Assembly (NCBI GenBank): GCA_020148045.1
Contig: JAHCRG010000007.1
Location: 22,914-86,913 of the forward strand
Source: Patescibacteria group bacterium
Lineage (GTDB): Bacteria; Patescibacteriota; Minisyncoccia; Minisyncoccales; GWA2-38-27
Direction: 5' to 3'
DNA length: 64,000 bases
The translations under genes were made by a program, and so were the position numbers. The notes beneath the pieces were generated by a model. The model was not told the DNA's origin, searched no databases, and was given only the letters and a program-made list of their open reading frames with translations. This document shows positions 10,016-42,878 of this stretch, one piece after another. Numbering within the stretch: position 1 is the stretch's first letter; each line of letters opens with the position of its first letter.

Positions 10016-11485
10016 TTAATTCTTGCCGATATTTAATCTCTTGTTTGCCGTGCTCAATAGATACAATATATACCTGTTGATTAAGACATACCCGCCGTAA
10101 AAGAATTTCCAAAGATTTGCTTTTCTGTATCTTAAATAAGATATAATCACTTTGGGCCTCAGGTAAAATTCACACATTGCTTTTCGCTGAAAATTTAGCA
10201 AATCCTTAGCGTCCATATCGCATGGGACATAGACAGGGTTACCACTGCAATCAGCCCAATCGTGCCAGGAAGTAAACTTTTCCGGCTCAAAAATAGAATC
10301 TGTATTTTTAAAGAGGTCTTCAAAGAACTTGGAGCCTGGATAGGGAACGGCAAGGTTGAATTTTGTAACATCGCAATTTAATTCTTTAGCAAACTTGATG
10401 GTCTCTTCACATGTCTCTTTTGTCTCCCCGGGTAAGCCTAAAATAAATGAGCCTAATGTATATATCTTCGATTTCTTAACAATCCTCATTGTCCTCCTTG
10501 CTTGCTCTAATGTAGTTCCTTTATTATTCCTATCTAAAACGGCCTGGTTTCCCGACTCAAGGCCAAACATGACCAGATGAACGCCTGCCCTCTTCATCAT
10601 CAGCAGTAATTCTTCATTTACTAAATCTACCCTGGTCTCTGTGCACCACTTAATCTTTTTATGCAGGCCTCTTTGAATCAGTTCTCTGCAAAATTGCAAA
10701 CCGAATTCTATAGAAAAAGGGAAATTGGTATCAAAAAAACCAAAATATCGGGCATCATATCTATTGCACATATATTCTAATTCTTTTATAATATCCTCGC
10801 TCTTTCTATAATTTGGCCTTGGATAAATTTTGTCCTGGGCGCAAAATGAACATCTATAAGCGCATCCCCTCGAGCCTAAAATTGGCAATGCCAACTGTTT
10901 ATCTATAATTGCAAGCGGAATATCTGTATAACGCCTAAGGTCAAAAAGATGCCATGCGGGATAAGGCAGTTCATCTAAATTTCTAATAAAAGGCCTGTCT
11001 GGATTGTGGGTTATAGAATTCCCATCTAGAAAACTAATGCCTCTTACACTGCGTAAATTGCCTTTTTTCTTAATCGCTAAAGCAAGCTCCAAAGTCGTAA
11101 CTTCGCCCTCTCCTCTCACAATAATATCCCCGGTTTTTTGCCCTAACAGTTCTTCTGCAAAGATTGTAGCATGGATGCCTCCTAATGCTATCGGGGCATT
11201 GCTAAATCCCCTTATTTGATTAACAAGTACTTTTACATTATTAATTGTCGGCGTAAGGCAAGAGAAACCTATAATTCCCGGATTATATTTTTTAATTTCG
11301 TCTAGAAGTCTTTTGTTATTCATCTTATTGGCAAATTGATCTATAGCCTTAACTTCTATGCCTGCTTTCTCAAGAACAGCGGCAATAGAAGCAATGCCAA
11401 AAGGAAGAATGGGGCGAAAAAAGCTTCTAAGTTTTTGGCTTTTTTCGACCAAAGCCGATGTAGGGTTTACTAATAATATTTTCAT
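10016..11485 (-). CDS. B12-binding-domain radical SAM enzyme (class B), paralog A1
   Basis: 489 aa. The N-terminal Rossmann B12-binding-like domain reads MKILLVNP...IIGFSCLTP...ALGGIHAT...IVRGEGE. The CX3CX2C motif lies in LGSRGCAYRCSFCAQD. It is closely similar to 12702..14198 (KWCTETRVD, AVPYPGSKFFED). Confidence 0.85.
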   Translation of the reverse strand: MKILLVNPTSALVEKSQKLRSFFRPILPFGIASIAAVLEKAGIEVKAIDQFANKMNNKRLLDEIKKYNPGIIGFSCLTPTINNVKVLVNQIRGFSNAPIALGGIHATIFAEELLGQKTGDIIVRGEGEVTTLELALAIKKKGNLRSVRGISFLDGNSITHNPDRPFIRNLDELPYPAWHLFDLRRYTDIPLAIIDKQLALPILGSRGCAYRCSFCAQDKIYPRPNYRKSEDIIKELEYMCNRYDARYFGFFDTNFPFSIEFGLQFCRELIQRGLHKKIKWCTETRVDLVNEELLLMMKRAGVHLVMFGLESGNQAVLDRNNKGTTLEQARRTMRIVKKSKIYTLGSFILGLPGETKETCEETIKFAKELNCDVTKFNLAVPYPGSKFFEDLFKNTDSIFEPEKFTSWHDWADCSGNPVYVPCDMDAKDLLNFQRKAMCEFYLRPKVIISYLRYRKANLWKFFYGGYVLINRYILYLLSTANKRLNIGKN

Positions 11486-11520
11486 AATTTATTATTACTT
11501 ATAGGAGTTTCCCTACCAAA

Positions 11521-12705
11521 TTAACCCCAATATTTAAAAATTTCGCCTGAAATAATCTCTTTCAAAAACCTGCTGTAATTATTAGCATCGTTTTGTTTAT
11601 ATTCAGGGTTAATCCTAACAGTTTGTTCGGCAATTTTTATACAATATCTGCAATCTTCGCAAGAATTGAGGTAGCAGTCTTCTTTCAAGAAATGGTCTAT
11701 AAAGCCATCTAACTTTCTATTGTCAATATAGACATCTAAATCTTTCAGCAGGCCTTTTTTTCTAACTAATTTAAATATATTTACCGCAAATGGATGGAAG
11801 AAGTATTTTATTTTATGGAGAAAATTTGGCCTTTTAAGCCATAGGCTCTTTGATGGATTCATAAACAGGTCATACAAGTTGCCATCGTGTTTCCTGTTTA
11901 AATAAGTATCTACAATAAAGGCGATGGCTTCGGTGGTCATATTCCTATCTACAACCTTGAATTTTTCAATGCCCATGTCTTCATAAACTGCAATATCCTC
12001 CGGCCTTATCCACGCCGAACGGATAAAATTTACTGGGTCGGCAATCATCTTGCTCCTGCACATAAACCGGCAATAATCGAACATAAAGATTCCCAGCTTA
12101 CTCGATGTTTGCGAACCGTGTGAACTAAGATTATGGTGGTAAAGAAATAACGGACAATCTTGGATGCAATTATCATTTACAATAAGTTGCAATTCGCATC
12201 TTACGCTTTCCTTAATCTTTTTCATCAATTTAAATCTGCGTGTCATCTCGGTTTGCGGCAAAGTGATTATTGAAGCCCCTAAGTCTTCCCAAAACTTGGC
12301 CTTAATTACCGAATTGACATGGGCAAAACAAGATACCGAAATTTCGAAATGGGGGTAATGCTTCCTTATCAACTGCGTAAGATAGGGAATTGCTACCACA
12401 ACTCCGTCTGCCTTAATTTCAGACAACCAAGTTAAAAGTTCATGTATTCTCTTCTGGCCAGACCCGGTCAATTCTCGACCGCCTATACAAGTAGAATTTA
12501 AGATATAATAAAATTTTAAGCTATTATTATGGATTTCACAGATGTGTTTCTTTATTTGCTTCTTTGTTACTTTTAGCGATATACAAGAAGGCCTTCCGCC
12601 TCCAAAAAAGTCCCTGTCCAATTTTCCATACACTGTGTCTATATTTGGTTTATTTATTTTCTTGATTAAATCGTTCTGCCAGTTTGTAGGAACCGTTAAC
12701 TTCAT
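11521..12705 (-). CDS. U32-peptidase-like (UbiU/UbiV/RlhA-type fold) protein, paralog B1
   Basis: The start was trimmed to the ATG at 12705, which forms an ATGA overlap with the upstream stop. The protein begins MKLTVPTNW. It has the TIM-barrel-like pattern ADGVVVAIPYLTQLIRKHYP and a Cys cluster region (NDNCIQDCP, DYCRFMCRS). It is a paralog of 14213..15265. Confidence 0.4.
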   Translation of the reverse strand: MKLTVPTNWQNDLIKKINKPNIDTVYGKLDRDFFGGGRPSCISLKVTKKQIKKHICEIHNNSLKFYYILNSTCIGGRELTGSGQKRIHELLTWLSEIKADGVVVAIPYLTQLIRKHYPHFEISVSCFAHVNSVIKAKFWEDLGASIITLPQTEMTRRFKLMKKIKESVRCELQLIVNDNCIQDCPLFLYHHNLSSHGSQTSSKLGIFMFDYCRFMCRSKMIADPVNFIRSAWIRPEDIAVYEDMGIEKFKVVDRNMTTEAIAFIVDTYLNRKHDGNLYDLFMNPSKSLWLKRPNFLHKIKYFFHPFAVNIFKLVRKKGLLKDLDVYIDNRKLDGFIDHFLKEDCYLNSCEDCRYCIKIAEQTVRINPEYKQNDANNYSRFLKEIISGEIFKYWG

Positions 12706-14198
12706 AGCAAGCAACGCCTTTTATTTTTATAATTCTTTGATTTAGCGATAATTCCTTTGAGTAGCATTGAAGCCAGCCACAAAAATCCAAGAAAAAGGTT
12801 TTTCAAGGTTACTGTTCTCTGTAAAATATGGTTCATAATAGCCCTAGGCCTTACATAAAAATCAAACATTGCTCTCCTCTGCAAATATCTCAGGGTCTCG
12901 CTGTCTAAATCTTCCGGGCAATAAACAAGGTCGCCTTTTGCTGATGTCCAATCGCTCCAACTAGTAAACTTTTCTGGCTCAGCTACCTTTTTATTATGCC
13001 TGATGAAATCTTCAAAGAATTTGGATCCGGGGTAGGGAACGGCAATATTAAACTTTACCAAGTCGCATCTTATCTCCTTTGCAAATGTTATAGTCTCCAT
13101 ACAAGTGTCTTTAGTCTCACCCGGAAGTCCAAGCATAAACAGGCCCTGGCTCAATATCCCGGCTTTTTTTGTTTCCTGTACTGCTATTCTCGCCTGTTCT
13201 AAGGTAGTTCCTTTATGGATACTTTTAAGGATTCTTTTATTTCCGACTTCTATGCCATACATAATAAGATGCACCCCTGCTTCTTTCATTGCCTTTAATA
13301 GTCCCGGGGAAACCTTATCAACTCTTGTCTCTGTACACCACTTAAGCTTTTTGTGCAGCCCGCGCTTTATCATGATATTGCAAAACTTTAATCCGGATTC
13401 CTCATCGAAAGGAAAATAGGCGTCGGAGAATCCAAAATACCGTATTTTACAAGAAGTTAAGAAGTATTCTATTTCATCGACAACCTTATTTAAATCGCGA
13501 TACCTTACCTTAGCGTATACAGTGTCTTGAGAACAATAATAACATCTATAAGGGCACCCTCGTGACGCCATTATCGGTATTGCCCTTGAATTAGATATCG
13601 CAGATAGAGGAACTTCACTATAATCATCTAAATTTAAAGCATCCCATGCCGGAAAAGGCAGTGCATCAAGATTATCAATAAGCCTGCGCTCTGGGTTGTG
13701 TCTTATTCCTCCAGGCAAACGGAAACTAATGCCGGCTACATCCTCTAATTGTTTGCCCTGCATAAGATGATTGCATAACTCCAGCATAGTTGTTTCTCCC
13801 TCTCCCCTCACTACAATATCAGCTGTGTAATCCTTAAGCATTTCTTCAGGAAAACAGGTGGCATGAATATTACCCAAAACAATTTTACTGCTAATTCTTG
13901 ACTTGCGGATCAGTAAAACCAGCCTTCTAATATCGGGCATAACCGGCGTAAGCGCAGAGAAACCTATAATAAACGGCTTTTGCTTTTTGATAGAATCGAT
14001 AAGTTCGCTGTCAGGCATCTTTCTTGCATACTGGTCGATAACAGAGACCTTTAGGCCATTGTTACGGAGCACGGCGGCAATATAGCATAGTCCAAGCGGA
14101 GCGATAGGAGTGCAGAATCTGCGGTAGCCCCAACTGTTATTTATTAATTTAGAATTAGGATTTATAAGCAAGACATCCGTATCTCTTTGCATTTGCAC
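12702..14198 (-). CDS. B12-binding-domain radical SAM enzyme (class B), paralog A2
   Basis: 498 aa with a B12-binding-like N-terminal domain and MASRGCPYRCYYCSQD. It has long identical stretches with 10016..11485. Confidence 0.85.
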   Translation of the reverse strand: MQMQRDTDVLLINPNSKLINNSWGYRRFCTPIAPLGLCYIAAVLRNNGLKVSVIDQYARKMPDSELIDSIKKQKPFIIGFSALTPVMPDIRRLVLLIRKSRISSKIVLGNIHATCFPEEMLKDYTADIVVRGEGETTMLELCNHLMQGKQLEDVAGISFRLPGGIRHNPERRLIDNLDALPFPAWDALNLDDYSEVPLSAISNSRAIPIMASRGCPYRCYYCSQDTVYAKVRYRDLNKVVDEIEYFLTSCKIRYFGFSDAYFPFDEESGLKFCNIMIKRGLHKKLKWCTETRVDKVSPGLLKAMKEAGVHLIMYGIEVGNKRILKSIHKGTTLEQARIAVQETKKAGILSQGLFMLGLPGETKDTCMETITFAKEIRCDLVKFNIAVPYPGSKFFEDFIRHNKKVAEPEKFTSWSDWTSAKGDLVYCPEDLDSETLRYLQRRAMFDFYVRPRAIMNHILQRTVTLKNLFLGFLWLASMLLKGIIAKSKNYKNKRRCLL

Positions 14199-14212
14199 AG
14201 GCCCTTAAAATT

Positions 14213-15265
14213 TCAAACTGTTTCGAAGAGTTTATTAATCTCTTTCAATAAGCATTCTTTTTTGGTCTGATCAACCGAGACCTCTACGCTGTCCATATAA
14301 AAGGTATCCTTTGTTAAATATATCTTTAACAGGGACTTAATATGCCTTTCCTTTGAAAGTACGCCATAGAGCTCTTTGCGATTGCAGAAATATAAGCATT
14401 TGAGGCCGGTCCTAATAAAAAGCGTGGGAAAAAATTTTAAGAGAATGCTAATAATCGAAGAATATCTACTTTCCGCAACCGAAGTGTTTACTAACCTAAA
14501 ACAATTGCCGTTATAGCTTTTTTGGGAATATGCCATCGCACAATTAATAATCCAGTTGGCAGGCTTGGTTCTTCCCCCCAGTTTAAGGAAATCAACCCCT
14601 ATCCCCTCATATTTTTTCACATCATTTGGGTAAATAAACCCCGTCTCTCTAAATAATGAGGGATTGTTTAATTTTAGCTTTAAGCACTTGAATATCCCTT
14701 TTTGAAAGTGCCCTGCGCTCTCTAAGTGCTCTCTCCAATAAGGGCAATTGGGAAGGCAGATGTTATTTGCCAAAAGCTTTATCTGTAAAGCTGTCTTTTG
14801 CTTGACCAGCCTGATAAACTCCAAATCGCTATTTTTAGTATAATCTAAGCAAATGACGTCACAGTCGAGTTCTTTAAATAGCATTGCCTCCTTAAGAGAA
14901 TCGATTTTGCAGGCAATGGAACTGCAGATTTTGAAAGGATATTCCTTCTTAACGAATGAAATAAAGCTGTAATTGGAGGCAGTTACCATATCCACATTGA
15001 TTTTGCTGAGTCTATCTAAAAGAGCAATCCTCTGTTTGGTAATAGTTATATTGGGATGATTTAGGACATAGTTAAATTTGATGCCTAATTCATGAGAGTA
15101 TTCTACATATTCTTTAAATCTTCCCGTATCAACTTTAGGCAAAGCGTACGAAGGCAAAACAGTTCCGCCGGCATCATTCTGTAAACTACCATAAGTATCG
15201 TGGACTGTGCCTTTCAGCTTTTCGAGAATCCTAAAGTCAAAGTTTGTGGGGGCGGATATCTTCAT
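14213..15265 (-). CDS. U32-peptidase-like protein, paralog B2
   Basis: 350 aa. MKISAPTNFDF and NNICLPNCPYWREHLESAGH align with MKLTVPTNW and NDNCIQDCPLFLYHHNLSSHG of 11521..12705. Confidence 0.4.
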   Translation of the reverse strand: MKISAPTNFDFRILEKLKGTVHDTYGSLQNDAGGTVLPSYALPKVDTGRFKEYVEYSHELGIKFNYVLNHPNITITKQRIALLDRLSKINVDMVTASNYSFISFVKKEYPFKICSSIACKIDSLKEAMLFKELDCDVICLDYTKNSDLEFIRLVKQKTALQIKLLANNICLPNCPYWREHLESAGHFQKGIFKCLKLKLNNPSLFRETGFIYPNDVKKYEGIGVDFLKLGGRTKPANWIINCAMAYSQKSYNGNCFRLVNTSVAESRYSSIISILLKFFPTLFIRTGLKCLYFCNRKELYGVLSKERHIKSLLKIYLTKDTFYMDSVEVSVDQTKKECLLKEINKLFETV

Positions 15266-15272
15266 TTTTGTT

Positions 15273-16796
15273 TTATTCTAACAGAAGTCGCATAATATAA
15301 ATTAATGCTTCTGCATTTTTATTTTTATTGTATCCTTTTCTCGCCAGCAGCCAGCCGTCCTCCATATGCACTACTCCGTAGTTATCTTCCGCCAAAAAGT
15401 ATTTTAATTGCAAGAGAAGTTCTTTCCTATCGATGTGATAAAGGTCGTCTTTTAGCAAATCTACAAATATATAATCCCATTTATATTTCCTGATAAGGAC
15501 TTCTCGGGATAACACACCCAAGAATTTACATCGTCCAAGGTGCGGCGCTAAGGATTGTAAAGTTATGCAAGATGCTCCGGAAGGAATCTTCTTTAATAAT
15601 TTATGTCCGATTTCGCTATGTCTTGTGGGCCTGTAATATCCAAAATGAAAATTTTTGCTAAATGGCATAGGCCCCAACTTATCCCCAAATACGCCTTTCG
15701 GCTTTACATAATAGTGCTGCAGAAATGCAACTATTAAGATCAGTACAGCTAATATCTTATGTAATAATTCCTTTTTTATGCCTTTATATTTAACAAAGAA
15801 CTTATTAATGGCCTTCTCTGTTCCATATACAGCGCCGGCAAAGATAAAGGCTAAGATTAAAAAATGTCCCGAGGAATGCTGATTTCTGAGCAATATAAAC
15901 CCTATTTCTGGTATGATAGGCAGAAGATGCAAAGGGGACAAAAATACAAAGATATTAGGCAAAGGATAAAAAGCATAAAGGAACATATTGTCTAGGTTGA
16001 AGAGATTTTTTATAAACAACGATGGGTTATTTAAAGCGTATCGCAAAGCCTCTATCAGACTACTGCCGTATCGGTCAAAATGCAACATTGGCGCGGGGAA
16101 AGACTGAGCTGTTAATTTAAGATAAATAAAGCAAAGGCCCGTTGTAACTATTAGCCAAATAGAGCTGATTTTTACAACTGTTTTTCCATATTTGCTTTTT
16201 GCTTTAGAAAAGGATAGGATTAACCCCAAAATAAGAGTCATTACCACTGTATCGACCTTTGACATATTAGCTAAAATTATAAAAAAAATGAATTTCCCGA
16301 AATTCTCTTTTTCCAAATAATAAAAAGCAAACAAAAGGAAAGGCAGCCCCAGCGAAAGAGGAATATAGCCTAACATTGCGCCTGTGGTTACAATAGGATG
16401 CAAAAGATATGCGATAGAAAAGGCGCCGGCTAAATAGGCACTATACAAGCGCTTTCTTGCGAGAAAATATATAGGCAGAGCCGCGCTTGCCATTATAATA
16501 CTTTGAAAAATATATAGTGCTTCGGCTCTGAGAATAAATTTATAGATAAATGCGATTAGGTAATTAATAGGAGTGAACAAAAAAAACAATACAGCATATT
16601 CGGGGCAAACATATACATTAAAAATACTGATACCTTCAGATAATTTTGGATAAATATGTATGAACTGCCATCCAAATAAAGTAGGAGAAAATATTTTAAA
16701 TTTTAAAATATTTATAAAAGCGAAGGCGATTGCAAAAATTAGGCTAAAGACGCAAATTATAATAAAGCTTAAATTATAATGTTTGTTGGAGCTCAT
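15273..16796 (-). CDS. large polytopic membrane protein (GT-C / DUF2079-like candidate)
   Basis: 507 aa with about 12 hydrophobic helices and a C-terminal soluble domain. It lies next to a CE4 deacetylase. Confidence 0.3.
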   Translation of the reverse strand: MSSNKHYNLSFIIICVFSLIFAIAFAFINILKFKIFSPTLFGWQFIHIYPKLSEGISIFNVYVCPEYAVLFFLFTPINYLIAFIYKFILRAEALYIFQSIIMASAALPIYFLARKRLYSAYLAGAFSIAYLLHPIVTTGAMLGYIPLSLGLPFLLFAFYYLEKENFGKFIFFIILANMSKVDTVVMTLILGLILSFSKAKSKYGKTVVKISSIWLIVTTGLCFIYLKLTAQSFPAPMLHFDRYGSSLIEALRYALNNPSLFIKNLFNLDNMFLYAFYPLPNIFVFLSPLHLLPIIPEIGFILLRNQHSSGHFLILAFIFAGAVYGTEKAINKFFVKYKGIKKELLHKILAVLILIVAFLQHYYVKPKGVFGDKLGPMPFSKNFHFGYYRPTRHSEIGHKLLKKIPSGASCITLQSLAPHLGRCKFLGVLSREVLIRKYKWDYIFVDLLKDDLYHIDRKELLLQLKYFLAEDNYGVVHMEDGWLLARKGYNKNKNAEALIYIMRLLLE

Positions 16797-16821
16797 GCGC
16801 GCGCTCTGTAATGTATTTATT

Positions 16822-17622
16822 TTACACCTTTCGGGATAAATAATTATGGATTGTCTCTGCCCTGAGGTCCTTTCTTTTGCACCATGCCAGAAAGTTATCC
16901 AGCAAGCCTAAAGTCTTATTTCCCGTATTGCGTGTTATCACATAAGGCAACTTAAAAGGCATTTTCCGGTCAATATTAGCAAAGTCCCAAGAATGAAAAT
17001 AAATGTTGATATAGTCATGAGTAAAGAGCGCCCAAGATGTGCAAAATTTAGCATAATTCAGGCCAAACCATCGAAACCAAATCCAAGAGAAAGGCAACCT
17101 GATAATTGGAGTAACCGAGATAGGAATATTTACTAATCCGCTCTTTGACTTCATTCTCCTAGATTTCAAAAAATTACAATAGCGACCGGGGACATATGTA
17201 GGATGGCAACTGTTGTCATAATCAAATCCAGACTTTCTAACAATATCAAAAGGCAAAACAACTAATTTGTGATTTTTGAAACCGTAAATCTTCGTCCTTA
17301 TATTCTTTTCTATTTTTTCTTTGATATATTTAATCTCGGCAATGGTCTCCTGGGCATTGCCATTTTTTTTATAATCTATGTTAGCATGAAGGCCCACTTC
17401 ATGCCCATCAGCGATTAATTGCCTTAATAGGTCGGGATACGTCTCTGATATCTTCTCAGTAACAAAAAAGGTAATTTTAATTGAATGGTCTCTAACAACT
17501 TTAAGCAATCTCTGTATTCCCGCAAAAGCTGTCTCGAGCATTAATTCTTCCGATATCGCTGCTCCGAAATCAAAAGGCAGGCTAAACTCCTCAAAGTCGC
17601 ATGCTAATAGCAATATTTTCAT
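16822..17622 (-). CDS. polysaccharide deacetylase (CE4-like)
   Basis: 266 aa with ITFFVTEKISETYPDLLRQLIADGHEVGLHA, an H-x-x-x-x-H metal motif in the NodB-like pattern. Confidence 0.65.
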   Translation of the reverse strand: MKILLLACDFEEFSLPFDFGAAISEELMLETAFAGIQRLLKVVRDHSIKITFFVTEKISETYPDLLRQLIADGHEVGLHANIDYKKNGNAQETIAEIKYIKEKIEKNIRTKIYGFKNHKLVVLPFDIVRKSGFDYDNSCHPTYVPGRYCNFLKSRRMKSKSGLVNIPISVTPIIRLPFSWIWFRWFGLNYAKFCTSWALFTHDYINIYFHSWDFANIDRKMPFKLPYVITRNTGNKTLGLLDNFLAWCKRKDLRAETIHNYLSRKV

Positions 17623-24572: not shown

Positions 24573-24697
24573 TTTATTTGTCCTTTTTAATCAAGAAAAT
24601 CGCTGCGTCAACAGCACCTGCGGTTCGCGATAACTCTAATACGATTTTCGCAGTGGTATCTGATGTTTTTATACTTTCCTATACCATAAAGAAGATG
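24573..24697 (-). promoter_or_regulatory. conserved 5' leader/promoter-operator motif, copy A
   Basis: The minus-strand core ATGGTATAGGAAAGTATAAAAACATCAGATACCACTGCGAAAATCG (24687..24642) is near-identical to 52135..52093. It has inverted arms TGGTAT/ATACCA around TATAAA. A second stem pairs GAAAATCG (24649..24642) with CGATTTTC (24602..24595). Confidence 0.5.
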
Positions 24698-24737: not shown

Positions 24738-24744
24738 GAAAACC

Positions 24745-24825: not shown

Positions 24826-24843
24826 AGCCACGCCTCCTTTCCC

Positions 24844-33841: not shown

Positions 33842-33859
33842 TATTTGTTCTCTCCGACT

Positions 33860-35224: not shown

Positions 35225-35246
35225 AAAATTATCTCCTGTCCAAATG

Positions 35247-36704
35247 TTAATTAAGAAACAGTTCTTTTTTAAAAGAATTTAAAATTTTTCTTGCTTTAAA
35301 ATAACCTACATCTTTTTTTCTATAAGCCTTGGCGGTATTCTGCGTGGTATTTAACATGCCTATTTTATGCAAAAATTTGTTAAATATGTTCTGTCTATGT
35401 ATTCTTTCTATTTCGGTGTTATCGCCATATTGCCATTTTCCCTGTGGATAAGTCGCTATATTTAACCCGGAAGAATTTCGGTATAAACTGGACCCCTTAA
35501 TAATTTCTAATCGGTTTGCCGGTGAAGCTTGATTTATATATTTTTTGTTTTTTACTATGAATTCCATAGTTTCAAATAAATCTTCTCGTGTTTCTCCAGG
35601 AAAGCCTACTATCCAATTAGTAGAAGTCTGTATCCCATGTCTTGTAGCATGTTTTAAATTTTTTTCTATTTCTTTGAAGGTATAGATTTTTTTCATCAAC
35701 TTTAGAACCTTGATTGAAGTAGATTCTACCCCAAAAGTTACAGTTCTACACCCTGCATCATACATTTTTCTGAATAAGTCCCCAGGCATATCAGCTCTTA
35801 CTACCATATTTCCGCTCCAGAACAAATCATTAATACCTGTGCTTATCAAAGCATCACACATTTCCTCTAAAAGTTTTAAGTTCCCATTAATTAATAAGTC
35901 ATTAAATTTCATTCTTCTTAATGAATAATTTCTATATAGATAAAGAATCTCTTCTGCAATTTTTTTACAACTTCTATTCCTGTATTTTTCTTGGTACCAG
36001 GTATCTACACAGAAAGTGCACCTATTGATACAACCTCTACTAGTAAGAAGAGGTAAAGAATTTCTGTGTAGATATTTATTTAGAGGAAACAGTGAGAAGT
36101 CCGGAATAGGAAGGTCATCTAAATTGCTTATACAATCTCTTGCAACAGTAGTAATTTTACTTTTACCGTCGTACATTACCAAACCTTTACACTCTGCTGA
36201 AAACTTACCCTGAGAAATCTTCTCTATCATTTCTACTAGAGTAATTTCGCCTTCACCTAAAACTATATAATCTCCTTTGCCTGGCCTTGAAAGAAAATAG
36301 CCCGGCTCTTCTTCACGACTACACTCTGGCCCGCCAAAAACTATTATTTTGTCAGGAGCCAGTTCTTTAATCTTAGAAGACAAATGAACACTGAATGCGC
36401 TGGATGTGGTTTGGACAGAAAAGCCGATGATATCTGCTTTAGTCCTTAATACCCTATCGGCATAAATATCGGCAATCTTATTTAATTCGTTTTTTTGTAG
36501 AAAAAAATTAGTGGGTAAGCAATATACATAATTTTCGGGTTTCCAAAATTTCTTATATTGTTGATAGGCATGAAAAAAATCAACGTTGATATCCAGCACT
36601 TCAACTGAAAAATTTTTCCTTTTCAAAGCAGCTATCAGATAAGCCAGCCCCAAAGGCGGCATCTCTATGTCATAAACAGGACACTGAATTAATAATATTT
36701 TCAT
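35247..36704 (-). CDS. B12-binding-domain radical SAM enzyme (class B)
   Basis: 485 aa with MKILLIQCPVY, IGFSVQTTS, VFGGPECS, VLGEGE and LTSRGCINRCTFCVD. Confidence 0.8.
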   Translation of the reverse strand: MKILLIQCPVYDIEMPPLGLAYLIAALKRKNFSVEVLDINVDFFHAYQQYKKFWKPENYVYCLPTNFFLQKNELNKIADIYADRVLRTKADIIGFSVQTTSSAFSVHLSSKIKELAPDKIIVFGGPECSREEEPGYFLSRPGKGDYIVLGEGEITLVEMIEKISQGKFSAECKGLVMYDGKSKITTVARDCISNLDDLPIPDFSLFPLNKYLHRNSLPLLTSRGCINRCTFCVDTWYQEKYRNRSCKKIAEEILYLYRNYSLRRMKFNDLLINGNLKLLEEMCDALISTGINDLFWSGNMVVRADMPGDLFRKMYDAGCRTVTFGVESTSIKVLKLMKKIYTFKEIEKNLKHATRHGIQTSTNWIVGFPGETREDLFETMEFIVKNKKYINQASPANRLEIIKGSSLYRNSSGLNIATYPQGKWQYGDNTEIERIHRQNIFNKFLHKIGMLNTTQNTAKAYRKKDVGYFKARKILNSFKKELFLN

Positions 36705-36714
36705 TGACTATTCC

Positions 36715-37737
36715 TTAAGGCTTGGACATACACGGTTGCAGACATAGCTGTTTGCATCTTTTTATTTTCATTCTTGCTTTCCGGGCTTCTTTTGAATACC
36801 ATATTTTCTTTAACTTTCCACTTCTTATATTTCCATATTCCCACCCGCACATACTCATATCTCCGTGAGGATTTATCTGAATCCAGTGAAACCCGGCAAA
36901 ACATCGCCAATAAGGATTACTCAATTTACCGGCAAAATATTTTTCGTATAAGGCTAAGTTATCGAAGTTTGAAATAACAGGCCGTTTATATTTTTCTCTA
37001 TAATGTGAAATTTTATTTATACTCGATTTAAATGAATTTATCTTATTGGAATCAAATAAAAAATTGTTAGTTGAATGATTCTTATGTGTATAAGTATTAT
37101 CTTCTATAAAGGGAATAAACAATATATGATTTATGGAAAGTTCCCTGCCTAAGTCTAGCAATAGAAGCATTTCCGTATAATTAAATATGTTGACAGTAAA
37201 AGATAAACCTATTGTTAACTCTGTATCTTTTAATTGATTTAGAATCTTTATGCCTTCTAAAGTCTTTTTAAAGGACCCTTGGCCTCTTATATAATCATGG
37301 GTTTTATCCGAAGCTCCGTCTAAAGAAATTTGCAAGTTGTTTACTTTCGCATCAATTATCTTAGAAGCTACGTCCCTGTCAATAAGCGTCCCGTTGGTAG
37401 TTACGGTTACCTTCATTTGCGTATTTTCGTTGACAAATTTAATTATTTCAAAAATATCATTCCTTAGAAAGGGCTCTCCGCCGGAAAAGACTATTGTTTT
37501 TATCCTCATTCTATCGGCCTGCAAAATTATATTTTTAATCTCATCTACGGTCAATTCCTGTTTTTTTTGCGAAGGGAATTTATAGGTTGTGCAAATTTTA
37601 CACTTAAGATTGCATCTGCCCGTTACATTAATCTGAATAAAGGACGGGCTAACGAAAGGAAAATTAAACATTCTGGAAATGGTATATTTAGTACCAATAA
37701 AACGTCGTTTTAATTTTATTTTAGAATCCTTATTCAT
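36715..37737 (-). CDS. radical SAM enzyme, SPASM/twitch-like C-terminus (array member)
   Basis: 340 aa with VTGRCNLKCKICTT, FSGGEPFLRNDIF and WRCFAGFHWIQINPHGDMSMC...RCKQLCLQPC. Confidence 0.8.
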   Translation of the reverse strand: MNKDSKIKLKRRFIGTKYTISRMFNFPFVSPSFIQINVTGRCNLKCKICTTYKFPSQKKQELTVDEIKNIILQADRMRIKTIVFSGGEPFLRNDIFEIIKFVNENTQMKVTVTTNGTLIDRDVASKIIDAKVNNLQISLDGASDKTHDYIRGQGSFKKTLEGIKILNQLKDTELTIGLSFTVNIFNYTEMLLLLDLGRELSINHILFIPFIEDNTYTHKNHSTNNFLFDSNKINSFKSSINKISHYREKYKRPVISNFDNLALYEKYFAGKLSNPYWRCFAGFHWIQINPHGDMSMCGWEYGNIRSGKLKKIWYSKEARKARMKIKRCKQLCLQPCMSKP

Positions 37738-37772
37738 AGCTTATTAAAAGGTAAAAGTTTGCGTACATAAAG

Positions 37773-38840
37773 TTAAGTGACTTTTCTTAATATACCATTT
37801 GCAATTTTCTTAACTAATGAAGTTATATTTATTAACTCCGGCTCATGCATTTCGGGGAATAGACATACCTTCTCACATCTCTTAATTATTTTTCGCATCC
37901 TCCTTGCCTCTTGCCCATACCATATTTCTCTCAAAGTTTTTTTCCTTATATCGCCTATCATATCCCGGCACATCCATACCCCGTAACTTTTCTGTTCATT
38001 ATAAGAAATAATTAATCTCGTAAAACCGATAAAGCAGCTTCCTTTTGACGAGGAATAGCCGTCATTAAAATATTGCGGCAGGAGCTTTACCCCCGGACAA
38101 AAATCCAAAAAATTGGTTGCTTTATTAAAGATTTCCAAATCTTCGCATATTTTTTCAAAAAAATCTTTCTCGGAAGGAGGAATCCAAAAAGAGTTTTCAC
38201 TAAAATCTCTACGGAGAGGATCGGCGTTACTTACATGTGCCGGCCTTAATGCCAATCTCCTGCACCCTAAGCCTTGTGAGAGCTGAGCAATATTAACCAA
38301 ATCCTTGTAATTCTGACGGGTAATTGTTGCTGTTACGCCTACGGATTTGCCGTTAGCAATAAATTTTTTGATATTATTTATAACAACGTCAAAACTCCCC
38401 TTTACTCCTCTTATACATTCATATATTTGAGCCGTGGAGCCATCCAGCGAAACCTGTAAATGATCTACTTCGGAATTAACTATTTTCTCAACAATATTCT
38501 TTTCATAAAACCCATTTGTAATCATTATAACTTTACGGCCTTTATCTTTAGCGTAAGCAATAATCTCAAATATACCGCTATACAGAAAAGGCTCTCCCCC
38601 CGTCAGGACTAAATCGGGAATTTTCAATGCCGCCATTTCATCAATAATGTTTTTTATCTCTTCGCAAGTAATTTCATATTCTTTGTCGAATTTACAATTT
38701 TTTATATCGCACATTATGCACTTTTGGTTACAGATATAATTTAAAGTAAGCGTTATATTACGGGGCGGATACAAAGGGAAATTAATCTTCTTTGACAAAA
38801 AATATAATATCCTTTCCCAAGTAGCACTTTTTTTACACAC
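37773..38840 (-). CDS. radical SAM enzyme, reduced Cys C-terminus (array member)
   Basis: 355 aa with LNYICNQKCIMCDI, LTGGEPFL and CFIGFTRLIISY...MC...RCEKVC. Confidence 0.8.
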   Translation of the reverse strand: MCKKSATWERILYFLSKKINFPLYPPRNITLTLNYICNQKCIMCDIKNCKFDKEYEITCEEIKNIIDEMAALKIPDLVLTGGEPFLYSGIFEIIAYAKDKGRKVIMITNGFYEKNIVEKIVNSEVDHLQVSLDGSTAQIYECIRGVKGSFDVVINNIKKFIANGKSVGVTATITRQNYKDLVNIAQLSQGLGCRRLALRPAHVSNADPLRRDFSENSFWIPPSEKDFFEKICEDLEIFNKATNFLDFCPGVKLLPQYFNDGYSSSKGSCFIGFTRLIISYNEQKSYGVWMCRDMIGDIRKKTLREIWYGQEARRMRKIIKRCEKVCLFPEMHEPELINITSLVKKIANGILRKVT

Positions 38841-38850
38841 TAAAGTACCT

Positions 38851-39933
38851 CTATTTTATACCTACTATTCTTTTAAAAAGCCTTCTTATGTCTGCCAGAA
38901 TATCTGAAGGCAAATAGACACAATCCTGGAGGCAATGTTTATTACACTGTTTGACTATATTTCTTATCCGCATAGCTTCCTGTGAAAACCAGATTTCTTT
39001 TAAACTTTTTTTTTCCAAATCTCCGTACATCCCCACGCAACTCCACACTTTTCCATCATAACCTATAACTATCCGCTTAATTGTTTCGTAACATCTAAAT
39101 CCGCTTCCCGGGCTTTCACCTTTAAAATAGCCAGGAAGAGCTTCTAATACTGCCTTATCGGTACAAATCTCAAAATCTTCAAGTGTATCTTTTAGGTGTA
39201 TTATTTTTTGCATATACTTCTTTAATTTAATAATATTCTCTTTAGACGGCCATAAATCATTTTTTCTTTTTTCAGACATCTTTATATTATTAGAGAGGAG
39301 CGGCTGGAAGATAATGCAATTACATTTATTGGCTCTGGCAAATTCAATCATCGGTAATATATCATTAATATTTTTATCCATAATTGTAAAATTTATTCCA
39401 ACCGTAGGAAATAGAGATTTATATTTAGACTTATAATAAATTAATTTATTGATGTTTTTCTCTGCCTTATTAAAAACGGTTTTGCCTCTAATCTCATCAT
39501 TTGTATCTTCTAATCCATCTAAAGAAATAGTAATATGGTTCAACTTAATTTCGAGCAATTTTTGAATAATCTTGTCGTTAAGCAACACCCCGTTTGTAAC
39601 AATATCTACTTTTTCTATACTATGGGTAACAGCGAATTCTGCAATCGCAAGCAAATCGTCTCTCATCAATGGCTCCCCGCCGGAGAATATAAGGTGCTTT
39701 ATTCCCATGCCTTCTATTTGGCAAATAGTCTCTTTTATTTTTGATGTAGTTAATTCTTTTGCTTTATCTGAAGTCTTGTTGATAGCACACATTTTGCATC
39801 TTAAGTTGCATCGATTAGTAGGAGAAAAATAGACATGCTCGGGAGGAATTAAAGGATAGGACAATACTCTACCGAAATAATATCCTAATTTTTCTTCGAG
39901 CATGGTATATTCTTTTTCCAAACGATTATTCAT
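38851..39933 (-). CDS. radical SAM enzyme, SPASM/twitch-like C-terminus (array member)
   Basis: 360 aa with PTNRCNLRCKMCAI, FSGGEPLM and FRCYETIKRIVIGYDGKVWSC...QCNKHCLQDC. Confidence 0.8.
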   Translation of the reverse strand: MNNRLEKEYTMLEEKLGYYFGRVLSYPLIPPEHVYFSPTNRCNLRCKMCAINKTSDKAKELTTSKIKETICQIEGMGIKHLIFSGGEPLMRDDLLAIAEFAVTHSIEKVDIVTNGVLLNDKIIQKLLEIKLNHITISLDGLEDTNDEIRGKTVFNKAEKNINKLIYYKSKYKSLFPTVGINFTIMDKNINDILPMIEFARANKCNCIIFQPLLSNNIKMSEKRKNDLWPSKENIIKLKKYMQKIIHLKDTLEDFEICTDKAVLEALPGYFKGESPGSGFRCYETIKRIVIGYDGKVWSCVGMYGDLEKKSLKEIWFSQEAMRIRNIVKQCNKHCLQDCVYLPSDILADIRRLFKRIVGIK

Positions 39934-39942
39934 CTTTCTTTT

Positions 39943-40971
39943 TCATTTTTTGTTATAAAATCTTATTAAATTTGGAAGATTTTGCGCTGTTTCTTGAGAA
40001 TAACAACTCTGCATACATAAATTTTTACAATTTTTTGAATGAATACGCAATTTATAAGCTTCTTTTGATTCCCAAGCTCTTTTTAAAGAAATTTTATCTA
40101 AATTCCCGCAAATTCCGTGACAACTATAAATTAAAGGTTCATTTTTTGCATAACAGATAAACACAGTTTTAAATCCGCCAAAACATATCCAATCTTTCTG
40201 TGTAAGTTGTCTCTGGTAATATTTAAGCAATAGCTCCAGGCGGGGCTCTTCGCAAATAGTTATGTGCTTTGGTCTATATTTTCTTAGCTTTGCGAGTTCG
40301 TCTTTCAATATGGCGACGTCTTCTTTCTCTAGCCAAAACGGAGATAATCTTCTGTCAAAAAAATTTGTATTATCGCTCGCTAACGGCTGGAAATTAATTA
40401 CATCGGCACCTAATTCATCGGCTAATTTGACCAGTTTAAATAATTCTTTTACATTTCTATTCATAACCGTACAGGCAATTCCTATCGACAAAGAACCATT
40501 GTTGTTTCTTTTTTCCATTAAAATCTTTATCGCCTTTATTGCCTTTTTAAATGCGCCTCTGCCTCTGAAAAAATCGTGTGTGTGGCCTAATCCATCAATA
40601 GAAAAATGGATGTGATTTATCTTGGAGTTGATAATCCTGTCTGCTAACTCACTGCCTATCGACATACCGTTGGTAGTAATTATATTTTGTAATCCTTTCT
40701 TATGAGAGTAATTACAAATTTCGAATATATCTTCTCGCAAGAAAGGTTCTCCGCCGGTTAAAACTACTTTTCTTACTGTATAATCAGCAGCTTCCTCAAT
40801 TATATGAAATATCTGTCCAGTAGACAGCTCTTCTTTCCGAGGCAATAAATCAACTATACTGCACATTTTGCATCTTAAATTGCATCTATAGGTGAGCGAA
40901 ATCTGAATTATTTCTGGCGCAATTATAGGATAATCTATTTTCCGGGATAACCAAGAAAGAAACGTATTCAT
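39943..40971 (-). CDS. radical SAM enzyme, SPASM/twitch-like C-terminus (array member)
   Basis: 342 aa with LTYRCNLRCKMCSI, LTGGEPFLREDIF and WICFGGFKTVFICY...SC...NCKNLCMQSC. Confidence 0.8.
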   Translation of the reverse strand: MNTFLSWLSRKIDYPIIAPEIIQISLTYRCNLRCKMCSIVDLLPRKEELSTGQIFHIIEEAADYTVRKVVLTGGEPFLREDIFEICNYSHKKGLQNIITTNGMSIGSELADRIINSKINHIHFSIDGLGHTHDFFRGRGAFKKAIKAIKILMEKRNNNGSLSIGIACTVMNRNVKELFKLVKLADELGADVINFQPLASDNTNFFDRRLSPFWLEKEDVAILKDELAKLRKYRPKHITICEEPRLELLLKYYQRQLTQKDWICFGGFKTVFICYAKNEPLIYSCHGICGNLDKISLKRAWESKEAYKLRIHSKNCKNLCMQSCYSQETAQNLPNLIRFYNKK

Positions 40972-42878
40972 TATTCAGGGTCACAAAAACATGGCAACAA
41001 ACATGGCCATGAACATTTTGCTACTCTTTCCCTTGCCTTAATCATTTGTCTACTCTGAAGAATATCTTCCAAATCCTGCTTCTTTATGTTTCCATAAGAC
41101 GAAAAACAAGTTCTGCTTTCTCCCTGATTAGAAACTAAAATTGTATATTTAGCAGATATACATTTCACATCCTCAGAAGTAATTATGCCCCGGAAATATT
41201 TTTTAATACATGATAAATTCTTAATAGAATTCCTTACAAAGCATGGATTCTCTTTCTTAAATTCTATTAATCCATCTATAATTTCATCAAGCATATTAAA
41301 CCTTTCTTTTGGAATCCAGAAAAGGGATTTGTTCCGTTGAGTCATTTTTAAATTATTTGGCAGTAATGCCTGGAATTGCAAGGAATTTGCTCCTAATGAC
41401 AAAATAAGCCCTGTCAACTCAAGCAATTCTTCCAGATTTTGATTTAAAATTACAACAATCGCATTAAAGTTTACCCGGGGATATTCTTTTTTTAATTGTG
41501 CAAGCAACTCCAGTCCTTTTACTGTTTTTTGCCAGGAGATATCAGAATTTCTTATCGCATTATGTATTTGTGGCTTTACGGAATCCAAAGAAATAACCGG
41601 AGAAATTGTATTGTCTACAAGATACGGGGTTAATCTCTTTAAGTATTCTTCTATAACTACCCCATTGCTTAAAATTCCTAAATTTTTAATCCCTAATGTT
41701 TTTGTATAATCAAGTATTTCAAATATATCTTTCCTTAACAAAGGCTCTCCTCCGGATAAAGTAATTTCTTTTATTCCTACTCCTTTAGTTTGGGAAAGAA
41801 TCTTTTTAATATAAGAAATAGGAATATCCTTATCTCTATTTGCTGTCTTCCATATATCGCAAATCCGGCAAGAAAGATTGCAAGAATGAGTAATATCTAA
41901 TATAAGAAGGCGGGGAATGCAGAAAGGCTTTTTCTCTCTCTTTAAGGACTTTTCACTTATTCTAATAAATTCTAAGACATTACCTGCAATGTAGAAAATT
42001 TTATGAAGGACAAAATGTGAATAGATAGATATTTTTTTATGGATATCATTAACATTACTTTCTTTTATAAGCCTTCTTCCTAAAGAATAGCTAAAACGAG
42101 GAATCTTTATAATATTAATCAAAATAGCAATCCAGAAAGAAAACTTACCTGTTTTTAATTCCTTCAATAAAGGGTGGTCTTTATGCACACATTGGGTTAA
42201 TAAATTTCCTCTTCCATAAATACAGGCTTGCCTTATAAAACTGTTTAGAGTATCATTTCGATAATGGAGGACTTTTATATTCTTATTCCAGATAAATCTA
42301 TGCCCGTGTTTAAATAAACGCCAGAAGAATTCTAAGTCTTCTCCTCCTGGCAAAGAAAATCTCTCATTAAATGTATATTTATCAAAAATCCGTCTTTTAA
42401 AAGAAACATTGCAGGTTGGAAAAAATATAATCTCTTTTTTCTTATTTAAATTAGTTTGGATAGCGCCGTTGCTTAAAAATTGACCCACCATAATACTCGT
42501 TTTTTTATAAGGAGTTTCTGTCAGGCCCCCCACAGTGATAATTTCTGGATTTTTTTTATGGGACTCAACCATCAGCTTAACCCAATCTCTATCTAATGTA
42601 CAGTCATCATCGGTAAAACCAATAATTTTCCCTTTTGCTTCTTTTATCCCTAAGTTGCGGGCGCAAGCTGGCCCTTTATGAAGCTGCTGAATATATCTTA
42701 GATTTTTATACTTTTGCATTAAGGCATCTATCATCTGGGGGATGTCATCCGATGAGCCATCGTCTACTATTATAATCTCATACTTATCCTTTGAATAGTC
42801 CTGCTCATCCAAAGACAAAAGGCATCTCTTTAATGTCTCTTTTCTGTTATAAGCTGGGATTATTATCGATAATTCCAT
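40971..42878 (-). CDS. GT2 glycosyltransferase fused to radical SAM/SPASM-like domain
   Basis: 635 aa. The N-terminal part reads ELSIIIPAYNR, IIVDDGSSDD and FTDDDC. From about aa 320 it reads ITHSCNLSCRICDIW, LSGGEPLLRKDIF and C-terminal KCISAKYTILVSNQGESRTC...KCSWPCLLPCFC. Confidence 0.8.
   Translation of the reverse strand: MELSIIIPAYNRKETLKRCLLSLDEQDYSKDKYEIIIVDDGSSDDIPQMIDALMQKYKNLRYIQQLHKGPACARNLGIKEAKGKIIGFTDDDCTLDRDWVKLMVESHKKNPEIITVGGLTETPYKKTSIMVGQFLSNGAIQTNLNKKKEIIFFPTCNVSFKRRIFDKYTFNERFSLPGGEDLEFFWRLFKHGHRFIWNKNIKVLHYRNDTLNSFIRQACIYGRGNLLTQCVHKDHPLLKELKTGKFSFWIAILINIIKIPRFSYSLGRRLIKESNVNDIHKKISIYSHFVLHKIFYIAGNVLEFIRISEKSLKREKKPFCIPRLLILDITHSCNLSCRICDIWKTANRDKDIPISYIKKILSQTKGVGIKEITLSGGEPLLRKDIFEILDYTKTLGIKNLGILSNGVVIEEYLKRLTPYLVDNTISPVISLDSVKPQIHNAIRNSDISWQKTVKGLELLAQLKKEYPRVNFNAIVVILNQNLEELLELTGLILSLGANSLQFQALLPNNLKMTQRNKSLFWIPKERFNMLDEIIDGLIEFKKENPCFVRNSIKNLSCIKKYFRGIITSEDVKCISAKYTILVSNQGESRTCFSSYGNIKKQDLEDILQSRQMIKARERVAKCSWPCLLPCFCDPE

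Follow-up and report, generated by a model that had tools for sequence, protein, structure and literature searches.

Predicted surface-glycan assembly and export genes linked to an array of radical-SAM enzymes across dozens of bacterial species

Introduction

The D-galactan I of Klebsiella O1/O2 and the galactan of mycobacteria (WecA, Glf, GlfT, Wzm/Wzt) are the closest described counterparts of the locus reported here, which shares with them an initiator, Glf, glycosyltransferases (GTs) of families GT2 and GT4, Wzm/Wzt and the lack of Wzx/Wzy. The locus lies in a 64,000-nucleotide stretch of contig JAHCRG010000007.1 (positions 22,914 to 86,913; hereafter the window), part of a 234,841-bp metagenome scaffold, and it places these glycan genes beside a large array of radical S-adenosylmethionine (SAM) enzymes.

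Radical-SAM genes typically make up about 2% of a genome or less. Some of the enzymes act on sugars: BlsE is a glucuronate/sugar decarboxylase and AprD4 a sugar diol dehydratase, both on small soluble substrates, and GenK, BtrN and DesII are further sugar-tailoring radical-SAM enzymes of antibiotic pathways. HpnJ contracts the ring of a lipid-bound glucosamine, and BchE is a cyclase. Proteins of the UbiU/UbiV type, members of family U32, are involved in oxygen-independent hydroxylation. The phylum to which we assign the locus, Candidatus Omnitrophota, consists of widespread uncultivated nanobacteria suspected of being attached to or preying on other cells. We found no description of the locus in full-text literature searches, and it goes unmentioned in the main Omnitrophota genomics paper (PMC10066038).

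Results

Linkage of the array to glycan assembly and export genes

The signature gene of the locus, which is also the first gene of the array, encodes a fusion of a GT2 domain to a radical-SAM domain (Table 1). Full-length homologues fall into at least 120 protein clusters at 48-69% identity, in which residues of catalytic type are invariant in both halves: the D90/D92 pair, E180-D181, C333/C337/C340 and the G376-G377-E378 motif. In an AlphaFold2 model of the fusion (predicted local distance difference test score, pLDDT, 85.8; predicted template modeling score 0.53, with uncertain packing between the domains), Foldseek identified a GT-A domain and a SPASM-type radical-SAM fold. The GT2 domain is structurally closest to the polymer-decorating enzymes RmlT, TarP and TarS, and the closest solved structure to the radical-SAM half is BlsE (E 8e-15).

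Scanning one genome per species gave 64 loci, about 58 of them in metagenome-assembled genomes (MAGs) of the Omnitrophota type. We compared all open reading frames (ORFs) of these loci with the proteins of the window; in 35 of the loci, at least 7 kb of DNA lie upstream of the fusion. An earlier sequence-only reading of the window had tied the radical-SAM genes to glycan assembly and export, and that tie recurs in other genomes: Wzm is found upstream of the fusion in all 35 loci, Wzt in 33, Glf in 28, the WecA-type initiator in 25 and the GT4 enzyme in 24. The 10 kb downstream of the fusion hold three to nine radical-SAM ORFs per locus. The comparison shows a conserved module of predicted WecA, GT4, Glf, Wzm and Wzt, then the fusion, a variable set of radical-SAM genes and a core of S7, S8, GT2c, B3 and GT2b, where genes are named in transcription order with S for Cys-rich and B for B12-type radical-SAM enzymes. 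The core order (S7, S8, GT2c, a 126-aa protein, B3, GT2b; 25522 to 31754) recurs across many loci and species. The lineage of S7 is narrow, with 101 representatives at E ≤1e-30 among 1.84 billion.

GT and radical-SAM domains have been joined more than once. GT2–radical-SAM–radical-SAM fusions exist in which the third domain is S5-like, and relatives of S7 occur as GT2 with two radical-SAM domains, as two radical-SAM domains with GT2–radical-SAM, as a B2-like class B enzyme with GT2–radical-SAM, and, in a protein of 1920 aa, as GT2 and GT4 with three radical-SAM domains. This repeated, independent fusion is the strongest argument that the enzymes work in a glycan pathway. The relatives of S7 also include long proteins (1000-1900 aa; P0284, P0297, P0300, P0301, P0378, P0411 and others) that carry two to four radical-SAM domains, in many cases together with GT2 or GT4.

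Homologues of the fusion are nearly all from Candidatus Omnitrophota, and the host of the locus is assigned to that phylum by homology. The NCBI protein label is 'Patescibacteria group bacterium', and several related MAGs are labeled Planctomycetia or Paceibacterota; because homology puts the locus in Omnitrophota, all three labels are probably taxonomic mislabels in public records. An assembly artefact was ruled out by an identical gene order on a second assembly (Logan contig, SRR10836662) and by synteny in dozens of MAGs.

Composition of the radical-SAM array

Between 10016 and 42878 there are exactly 19 ORFs with a CX3CX2C motif, as the sequence-only reading had counted. All 19 exceed the gathering threshold of PF04055 (29.5) with 51.8-106.6 bits and are predicted from motif and profile to cleave SAM with a [4Fe-4S] cluster. 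They constitute 19 of the 27 ORFs across 33 kb, a density that, set against the usual share of about 2%, excludes chance. Gaps between genes of the array are below 60 nt except for one of 272 nt (24572-24844).

The eight enzymes proposed to be class B all match the B12-binding profile PF02310 (38.8-82 bits; threshold 32.1). Of eleven proposed to be SPASM- or twitch-like, five (S2, S3, S4, S5 and S8) score above the PF13186 threshold and the other six are not profile-verified. Among these six, the fusion is marginal (20.0 bits; threshold 21.5) and the enzyme at 23061, here called S9pep, can be aligned along its whole length with the SPASM enzyme CteB; five Cys-rich ORFs that lack a Pfam SPASM match have 5-10 cysteines after the core, commonly with a terminal CX3CX3C. 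The CX3CX2C motif of the Cys-rich enzymes begins at residues 15-42, which leaves no space for a peptide-recognition domain; the exceptions are S9pep and the fusion, where it begins at residue 333, after the GT2 domain.

The paralogs cannot be sorted neatly into families already known to modify peptides or lipids: no curated NCBIfam cutoff is reached by any of the 19, and the one exception in kind is S9pep, which is CteB-like and has its own precursor-like peptide. All eight class B enzymes lie below the curated cutoffs of the characterized subfamilies (BchE, HpnJ, HpnR, PhpK, AprD4, TsrM and the C-methyltransferases of ribosomally synthesized, post-translationally modified peptides, or RiPPs). 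Their top score is that of B3 against HpnJ (275 bits; cutoff 577). The closest solved structures are AprD4 for B3 (6fd2, E 8e-24) and BlsE for S7 (7vob, E 9e-13), and B4, B7 and B8 are BchE-like by NCBIfam. With BchE, HpnJ and AprD4 types as nearest relatives, methylation of unactivated carbons, which the sequence-only reading associated with class B, is rejected here as the default activity. The paralogs are 23-36% identical to one another, apart from B7 and B8 (51%), and are old.

The block between the fusion and the core differs in content from genome to genome. In its hypervariable part (32864 to 40971), orthologues of S3, S4, S5, B1 and B2 at ≥45% identity occur in 0-2 of 60 loci; S6 adjoins this part. 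The GC content of the radical-SAM block, 0.33-0.34, is the lowest in the window, and that of the rest of the array is 0.36-0.39. The low GC of 32864-42878 resembles that of the variable regions of O-antigen loci, which is often low too.

Glycan assembly and export module

Pfam and Protein Data Bank (PDB) matches confirm the neighbors named by the sequence-only reading: four GT2 domains (GT2a, GT2b, GT2c and the N-terminus of the fusion), a CE4 deacetylase, a WecA-type initiator, a GT4 enzyme, Glf, Wzm/Wzt and a glycoside hydrolase. Of the absences that it had listed, those of Wzx, Wzy, nonribosomal peptide synthetase and polyketide synthase stand, since Pfam scans of all ORFs in the window gave none of these (no PF01943-, PF13440- or PF04932-type matches), and the same scans found no classical nucleoside diphosphate (NDP)-sugar dehydratases, aminotransferases or epimerases at the locus. 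The parts of an ABC-transporter-dependent pathway, i.e., initiator, cytoplasmic GTs, Wzm and Wzt, are thus all present, and Wzx/Wzy are absent.

The ATPase domain of Wzt resembles that of the Aquifex O-antigen exporter (8dku). It is followed by a C-terminal region of 660 aa (45040-47025, minus strand) in which a unit of about 220 aa is repeated three times in tandem (E 3e-62 and 5e-29 by self-hhalign). The extension is conserved across the phylum, as each of 37 Wzt orthologues has 890-935 aa. It has no match in Pfam, including searches with sub-fragments, or in a profile search of PDB sequences, and an AlphaFold2 model of the repeat, for which the alignment held window sequences only, reached a pLDDT of 54, too weak to classify the fold. 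The three-repeat region may be a triple glycan-recognition module. The GH44-like hydrolase next to Wzt, found in 9 of the 35 loci, has an N-terminal hydrophobic segment at aa 9 that represents a signal or an anchor. The GT4 gene probably starts downstream of its annotated TTG (52096); from a TTG near 52003 the protein has a typical N-terminus (MRRLNVLHIV..GG), and there is room for a sigma-70-like promoter match at 52057-52029.

Peptide–maturase cassette

The sequence-only reading saw no obvious long precursor peptide. In spirit this was wrong, as a conserved 28-aa ORF with a GTG start and a strong Shine-Dalgarno sequence occupies the only sizeable intergenic gap. A peptide of this kind lies directly upstream of the S9pep-family gene in all eight loci examined (the window and the related loci L067, L068 and L153-L157), although the S9pep-family proteins of this set, one of which is from an Elusimicrobiota contig, are as little as 38% identical. 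The eight peptides have 26-36 aa, are very basic, contain one or two cysteines and end in [FY]C.[CS].RVLW-stop; the family has no Pfam or NCBIfam match. Eight nucleotides past the peptide stop is a GC-rich hairpin, likely an attenuator or terminator, which carries a compensatory G:C to T:A change in L067 and has likewise placed counterparts in L154 and L156.

S9pep aligns with CteB (5wgg) over residues 3-447 and has an N-terminal extension of about 90 aa that resembles a RiPP recognition element. This corresponds to the SCIFF/ranthipeptide-type layout of a maturase with an N-terminal recognition domain and an adjacent short Cys-containing peptide. Its scores are below the curated cutoffs (PapB, 258 bits; cutoff 340; SCIFF maturase, 252; cutoff 425), and a metagenome scan with the S9pep alignment gave generic radical-SAM patterns, with only distant SCIFF-like enzymes at ≤31% identity and no orthologous context. 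The pair stands among unrelated genes in L154 (housekeeping) and L157 and, in the Elusimicrobiota locus L156, beside other radical-SAM genes and without glycan-assembly genes. It is therefore an autonomous unit, often but not always found within radical-SAM/GT arrays, and since S9pep belongs to it, one of the 19 enzymes is removed from the glycan count, leaving 18. By its sequence features, the basic RVLW peptide with its CteB-like maturase is a candidate for a new RiPP or peptide-derived factor in two phyla.

An element of about 70 nt is present at two intergenic sites on the minus strand: 24619-24687, between the hairpin and S9pep, and 52066-52135, just upstream of the GT4 gene. Its core 14-mer, ACCACTGCGAAAAT, has 2 matches (0.04 expected) and is absent from related loci. 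We read the element either as a repeat specific to this genome or as a regulatory site that both places share.

Flanking modules

Genes spanning 593-63711 are all on the minus strand and densely packed, with gaps mainly below 60 nt. In and beside the array, the sequence-only reading had passed over two U32 genes, a DUF2079 gene, the 126-aa protein, a cobalamin riboswitch with a salvage operon, and double-cubane and activase genes.

The order B4-B5-B6-S10 is kept in L067 and L068, with a B5-like gene at the S10 position in L068. The run from CE4 onward is also conserved in both, and GT2a has an orthologue in place in L067, not in L068. A U32 protein (Cys-rich, of no curated family) is again paired with a BchE-like B12 radical-SAM enzyme in L067-L069 and L150-L152, beside DUF2079 or PMT_2 transferases. 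In L150, L151 and L152 the core of the module consists of U32+B12 pairs, DUF2079, DUF3108-like and NapH-like genes without CE4, often with PMT_2 transferases; PMT_2 genes accompany the module in L069, L150 and L152. The set at 5285 to 9975 is found after the U32/DUF2079 genes, its order unchanged, in L067, L068, L150 and L151, and in L152 only through the NapH-like gene; the HGD-D protein and its activator are thus in L150 and L151 but not in L152. The DUF2079 protein is probably a GT-C-type transferase. We speculate, by analogy with ArnC/ArnD/ArnT, that the module makes a modified polyprenyl-phosphate sugar that is transferred on the periplasmic side, and, by analogy with UbiU/UbiV, that the U32+B12 pairs form an oxygen-independent hydroxylation module. 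The NapH-like, double-cubane and activator genes might, equally speculatively, provide an ATP-driven supply of low-potential electrons.

Upstream, a cobalamin riboswitch precedes a corrinoid salvage and uptake operon, which has Asn-synthase-like and Diphthami_syn_2-like genes as odd members; a terminator-like hairpin is located at 63706-63680. The operon ends 56 nt from the annotated GT4 start, or about 148 nt from the TTG near 52003, a gap that holds the sigma-70-like promoter match. This match and a site upstream of the riboswitch are the two plausible promoters. The operon was rejected as a part of the system: none of the other genomes compared shows it next to the glycan locus, and control by a B12-off riboswitch would suit B12-dependent enzymes badly. 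We prefer to take it as a convenient supply for the eight B12-type enzymes, outside the system.

Table 1. Features of the window in transcription order. All lie on the minus strand; the last column gives the number of loci with an orthologue at ≥45% identity.
Feature	Position	Evidence or description	Loci
Cobalamin riboswitch RF00174	63772-63949	110.2 bits (gathering threshold 31.5), E 1e-26	
Corrinoid salvage/uptake operon	52152-63711	CobU, CobT, CobS, CbiB, CobD-type aminotransferase, two BtuF-like, BtuC, BtuD, TonB-dependent receptor (Pfam)	
GT4 (group 1) glycosyltransferase	50843-52096	PF00534 138 bits	
WecA/MraY-type polyprenyl-phosphate sugar-1-phosphate transferase (initiator)	49869-50849	PF00953 102.9 bits; ten hydrophobic segments	
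UDP-galactopyranose mutase (Glf), predicted to make UDP-galactofuranose	48535-49869	4dsg E 5.4e-42, residues 4-416	
Wzm, ABC-2 permease	47774-48553	PF01061	
Wzt	45037-47772	Nucleotide-binding domain aa 14-244; 8dku E 1e-69	
GH44-like hydrolase with CIA30-like domain	42847-45015	PF12891 61.7 bits; PF08547 25.6 bits	
GT2–radical-SAM fusion	40971-42878	635 aa; PF00535 128 bits and PF04055 84 bits	
S1	39943-40971	Pfam	17 of 60
S2	38851-39933	Pfam	13 of 60
S3	37773-38840	Pfam	
S4	36715-37737	Pfam	
B1	35247-36704	Pfam	
B2	33860-35224	Pfam	
S5	32864-33841	Pfam	
S6, Cys-rich C-terminus	31759-32829	PF04055 98 bits	1
S7	30609-31754	BlsE-like	23
S8	29381-30616		11
GT2c	28062-29384		
126-aa protein	27685-28065	Two transmembrane segments, coiled coil	
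B3, B12-type	26327-27688	HpnJ/AprD4-like	14
GT2b	25522-26358		
GT2a	24844-25521	225 aa; polyprenyl-monophosphate-hexose synthase type; NCBIfam best AglJ, dolichyl-P-hexose transferase, PpgS, ArnC, all below cutoff	
Precursor-like ORF	24745-24831	28 aa, (M)AVVRLLNRRKSTRKYRAAFCRCGRVLW	
GC-rich hairpin	24698-24737	RNA fold -39.1 kcal/mol, z -4.8	
S9pep, CteB-like radical-SAM/SPASM peptide maturase	23061-24572	5wgg E 5.7e-58	
B4, B12-type	21557-23149	Pfam	
B5, B12-type	20127-21560	Pfam	
B6, B12-type	18579-20117	Pfam	
S10	17626-18612	Pfam	
CE4 deacetylase	16822-17622	PF01522 41 bits	
DUF2079 polytopic membrane protein	15273-16796	PF09852 128 bits; nine hydrophobic segments	
U32b	14213-15265	Pfam; paired with B7	
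B7	12702-14198	Pfam; paired with U32b	
U32a	11521-12714	Pfam; paired with B8	
B8	10016-11485	Pfam; paired with U32a	
DUF3108-like	9199-9975	Pfam/NCBIfam	
303-aa protein	8301-9212		
NapH-like membrane polyferredoxin	7315-8304	Pfam/NCBIfam	
Double-cubane-type HGD-D protein	6092-7321	235 bits (cutoff 350)	
HgdC-type ATPase activator	5285-6076	Pfam/NCBIfam	
DUF3108-like	4569-5288	Pfam	
Protein of no family	2794-4518	12 transmembrane segments (hydropathy)	
DUF3108-like	2183-2788	Pfam	
Membrane protein	593-2179	6 transmembrane segments; weak spermine-synthase-like (methyltransferase-fold) match	

Discussion

The gene content and synteny described above suggest, as the favored explanation, a pathway of radical tailoring of a galactofuranose-containing, polyprenol-linked glycan before export by Wzm/Wzt, and we regard the case for it as evenly balanced. 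In such a pathway, WecA would prime polyprenyl phosphate, and the GT4 and GT2 enzymes would lengthen a galactofuranose-containing chain on the cytoplasmic face. After each transfer, a fused or adjacent radical-SAM enzyme would alter the new sugar by hydrogen-atom abstraction, the Cys-rich type by oxidation, decarboxylation, epimerization or deoxygenation and the B12 type by dehydration, ring contraction, C-methylation or anaerobic hydroxylation. Such chemistry would, in this anaerobe, take the place of the nucleotide-sugar tailoring enzymes that the locus lacks. Wzm/Wzt would then export the chain, with the three-repeat C-terminus of Wzt as a candidate glycan recognizer, and a second route on the periplasmic side (GT2a, CE4, the DUF2079 protein and the U32+B12 radical-SAM pairs) may add a further modified sugar. 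The hypervariable block would give rise to strain-specific glycan chemistry, akin to serotype variation, and the CteB-like enzyme with its 28-aa peptide would be a separate RiPP-like cassette within the array. The fuller statement, that a surface polysaccharide is rebuilt after glycosyl transfer by GT-coupled radical-SAM enzymes (C-methylation, epimerization, deoxygenation, decarboxylation, ring contraction, anaerobic hydroxylation), that the hypervariable block makes its chemistry strain-specific and that the three-repeat domain of Wzt reads the chain, is tentative, and we lean slightly against it in this complete form.

The closest solved relatives, BlsE and AprD4, act on sugars, which favors a glycan substrate. 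A preprint on giant Omnitrophota proteins independently reports that radical-SAM domains co-occur with sugar-metabolism domains (10.64898/2026.06.07.730766), which fits a glycan role. The idea of glycan tailoring in the sequence-only reading has stood in part: the linkage to glycan genes is conserved and the enzymes do not sort into known families, but methylation has been dropped as the default and one enzyme of the 19 is part of a separate peptide cassette.

Several observations weigh against glycan tailoring by the array: (i) Similarity to BlsE, AprD4 and HpnJ is low, lies mainly in the common core and is far below cutoffs, so that the resemblances are leads only and the reaction types are guesses from distant relatives. 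(ii) The GT fusion is equally compatible with action on a nucleotide-sugar donor. (iii) A peptide and its maturase are located inside the array, and the best match of both B1 and B2 is the RiPP C-methyltransferase TIGR03975 (148 and 175 bits; cutoff 282). (iv) The window contains no WaaL or Wzy_C match that would indicate a ligase or glycan acceptor. (v) Promoter and terminator scans of the window gave counts equal to the shuffled background and are uninformative on operon structure. (vi) In one genome, about 120 kb separate the U32/DUF2079 module from the fusion locus; the module is therefore separable, and the window may hold more than one system.

The main rival is a nucleotide-sugar factory, in which the radical-SAM enzymes make unusual UDP- or NDP-sugars (deoxy, branched, epimerized, decarboxylated) that the GTs transfer, and the lipid-linked chain is not remodeled. 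It would account for the small soluble substrates of BlsE and AprD4; without classical NDP-sugar enzymes at the locus, sugar diversity needs another source, and a GT–radical-SAM fusion would channel a labile donor. We nevertheless consider it unlikely. Eighteen enzymes beside about five cytoplasmic GTs are many more tailoring steps than the donors required, B3 has as its best curated match HpnJ, whose substrate is a lipid-bound sugar, and the structural neighbors of the GT2 domain decorate polymers; none of these three points is decisive.

A single large RiPP pathway, in which many if not all radical-SAM enzymes would modify the 28-aa peptide as happens with polytheonamide, GT2 enzymes would glycosylate it and the ABC transporter would export it, seems improbable to us. 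The conserved precursor-like ORF and the CteB-like maturase inside the array speak for it, as do the TIGR03975 matches of B1 and B2, the presence of MftF, the mycofactocin glycosyltransferase, among the best matches of several GT2 domains, and the position of B4-B6 after the maturase in the window, L067 and L068 (B4 alone in L151). It is hard to reconcile with the pairs that stand alone in L154 and L157 or without glycan-assembly genes in L156, and with the absence of the peptide motif from all other fetched loci, including about 45 fusion loci for which only 10 kb downstream was covered. Moreover, the other Cys-rich enzymes lack an N-terminal recognition domain and there is no PqqD-like ORF, and WecA, Glf and Wzm/Wzt serve polyprenol-linked glycans specifically.

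We give an equally small chance to a lipid or glycolipid pathway, where the enzymes would modify a membrane lipid or the polyprenol by methylation, cyclization or coupling, as in hopanoid, tetraether and proposed ladderane synthesis, and the GTs would add a head group. 'Ladderane-type' clusters have been called in Omnitrophota MAGs (PMC9902471). The NCBIfam matches of the B12 enzymes include HpnJ, HpnR, BchE and TIGR04072 ('lipid biosynthesis B12/radical SAM'), and several Cys-rich enzymes weakly match the tetraether synthase Tes. These matches are far below cutoffs, however (e.g., TIGR04072 at ≤131 bits; cutoff 360), with no equivalog match to HpnH, HpnJ, HpnP, HpnR or TIGR04072; the window has no squalene/hopene cyclase, fatty-acid, polyketide or ether-lipid genes, and the fusion partners are glycosyltransferase domains, not lipid enzymes. 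Finally, it is scarcely probable that the window merely brings together, on one strand, independent units without a common function: the B12 salvage genes, an ordinary galactan locus, an island of radical-SAM genes, the U32/DUF2079 module and the peptide cassette. In favor of such co-location are the unconserved adjacency of the B12 operon, the autonomy of the cassette, one genome in which the U32/DUF2079 module and the fusion locus are not linked, and the sigma-70-like promoter match that precedes GT4; against it, the order Wzm/Wzt, fusion, core is kept across dozens of species and GT and radical-SAM domains have been fused repeatedly.

If radical tailoring of the glycan is correct, bacterial surface glycans would be diversified after transfer by radical chemistry at unactivated carbons, a carbohydrate counterpart of the hypermodified RiPPs; we know of no described O-antigen, capsule or cell-wall glycan pathway that does so. 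It would also add about 18 uncharacterized radical-SAM lineages, including GT-fused and multi-domain forms, whose partners indicate a defined class of substrate. A surface-glycan locus that is conserved yet hypervariable is a candidate for a role in host or prey contact and in phage evasion. The RVLW peptide and its maturase, found in Omnitrophota and Elusimicrobiota and sometimes amid housekeeping genes, would in turn be a candidate new RiPP or peptide-derived factor.

Comparison with known systems

Each part of the locus has a described counterpart, from which it departs in some respect. In galactan pathways, later additions are made in the periplasm by polytopic polyprenyl-phosphate-sugar transferases, and such additions are plausible here too (GT2a, DUF2079). 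The locus differs from galactan and O-antigen pathways in its 18 radical-SAM genes interleaved with GT genes, one of them fused to GT2, and in that no ligase is seen. Known Wzt proteins have a single carbohydrate-binding domain of about 150 aa, in contrast to the 660-aa three-repeat extension found here.

In hopanoid synthesis, HpnI (GT2), HpnK (deacetylase) and HpnJ (B12 radical-SAM) act successively on a lipid-bound amino sugar. Similarly, B3, whose best match is HpnJ, lies between two GT2 genes, with CE4 further downstream; unlike in that set, B3 is far from the HpnJ cutoff, hopanoid genes are absent and the lipid would be a polyprenol carrier. The grouping of a small GT2 enzyme, CE4 and a polytopic transferase is shared with the Arn pathway (ArnC, a GT2; ArnD, a CE4; ArnT, a GT-C) and with mycobacterial PpgS/Rv3779, but here two U32+B12 radical-SAM pairs are inserted and the transferase is DUF2079, not PMT_2.

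The antibiotic-pathway enzymes BlsE and AprD4, the nearest solved relatives of the fusion, S7 and B3, share radical chemistry on carbohydrate carbons. Their pathways have one or two radical-SAM enzymes and small soluble substrates, whereas up to 18 occur here in a surface-glycan locus and the similarity is mostly that of the common core. As in polytheonamide-type RiPP clusters, B12-type and Cys-rich radical-SAM genes are densely clustered, which suggests extensive modification of unactivated carbons; unlike there, the conserved partners are glycan assembly genes and the sole peptide sits in an autonomous two-gene cassette. Within that cassette, S9pep resembles the ranthipeptide maturases CteB/SCIFF and PapB over its full length, including the N-terminal recognition domain and SPASM, with a short Cys-containing peptide immediately upstream, yet it scores below their cutoffs, and the peptide is very basic with one or two cysteines and an invariant RVLW end and belongs to no curated precursor family. 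The scaffold for assembly and export is of a known kind; new are the extent to which radical-SAM enzymes take part, the conservation of this involvement and the fusions that join them to GTs.

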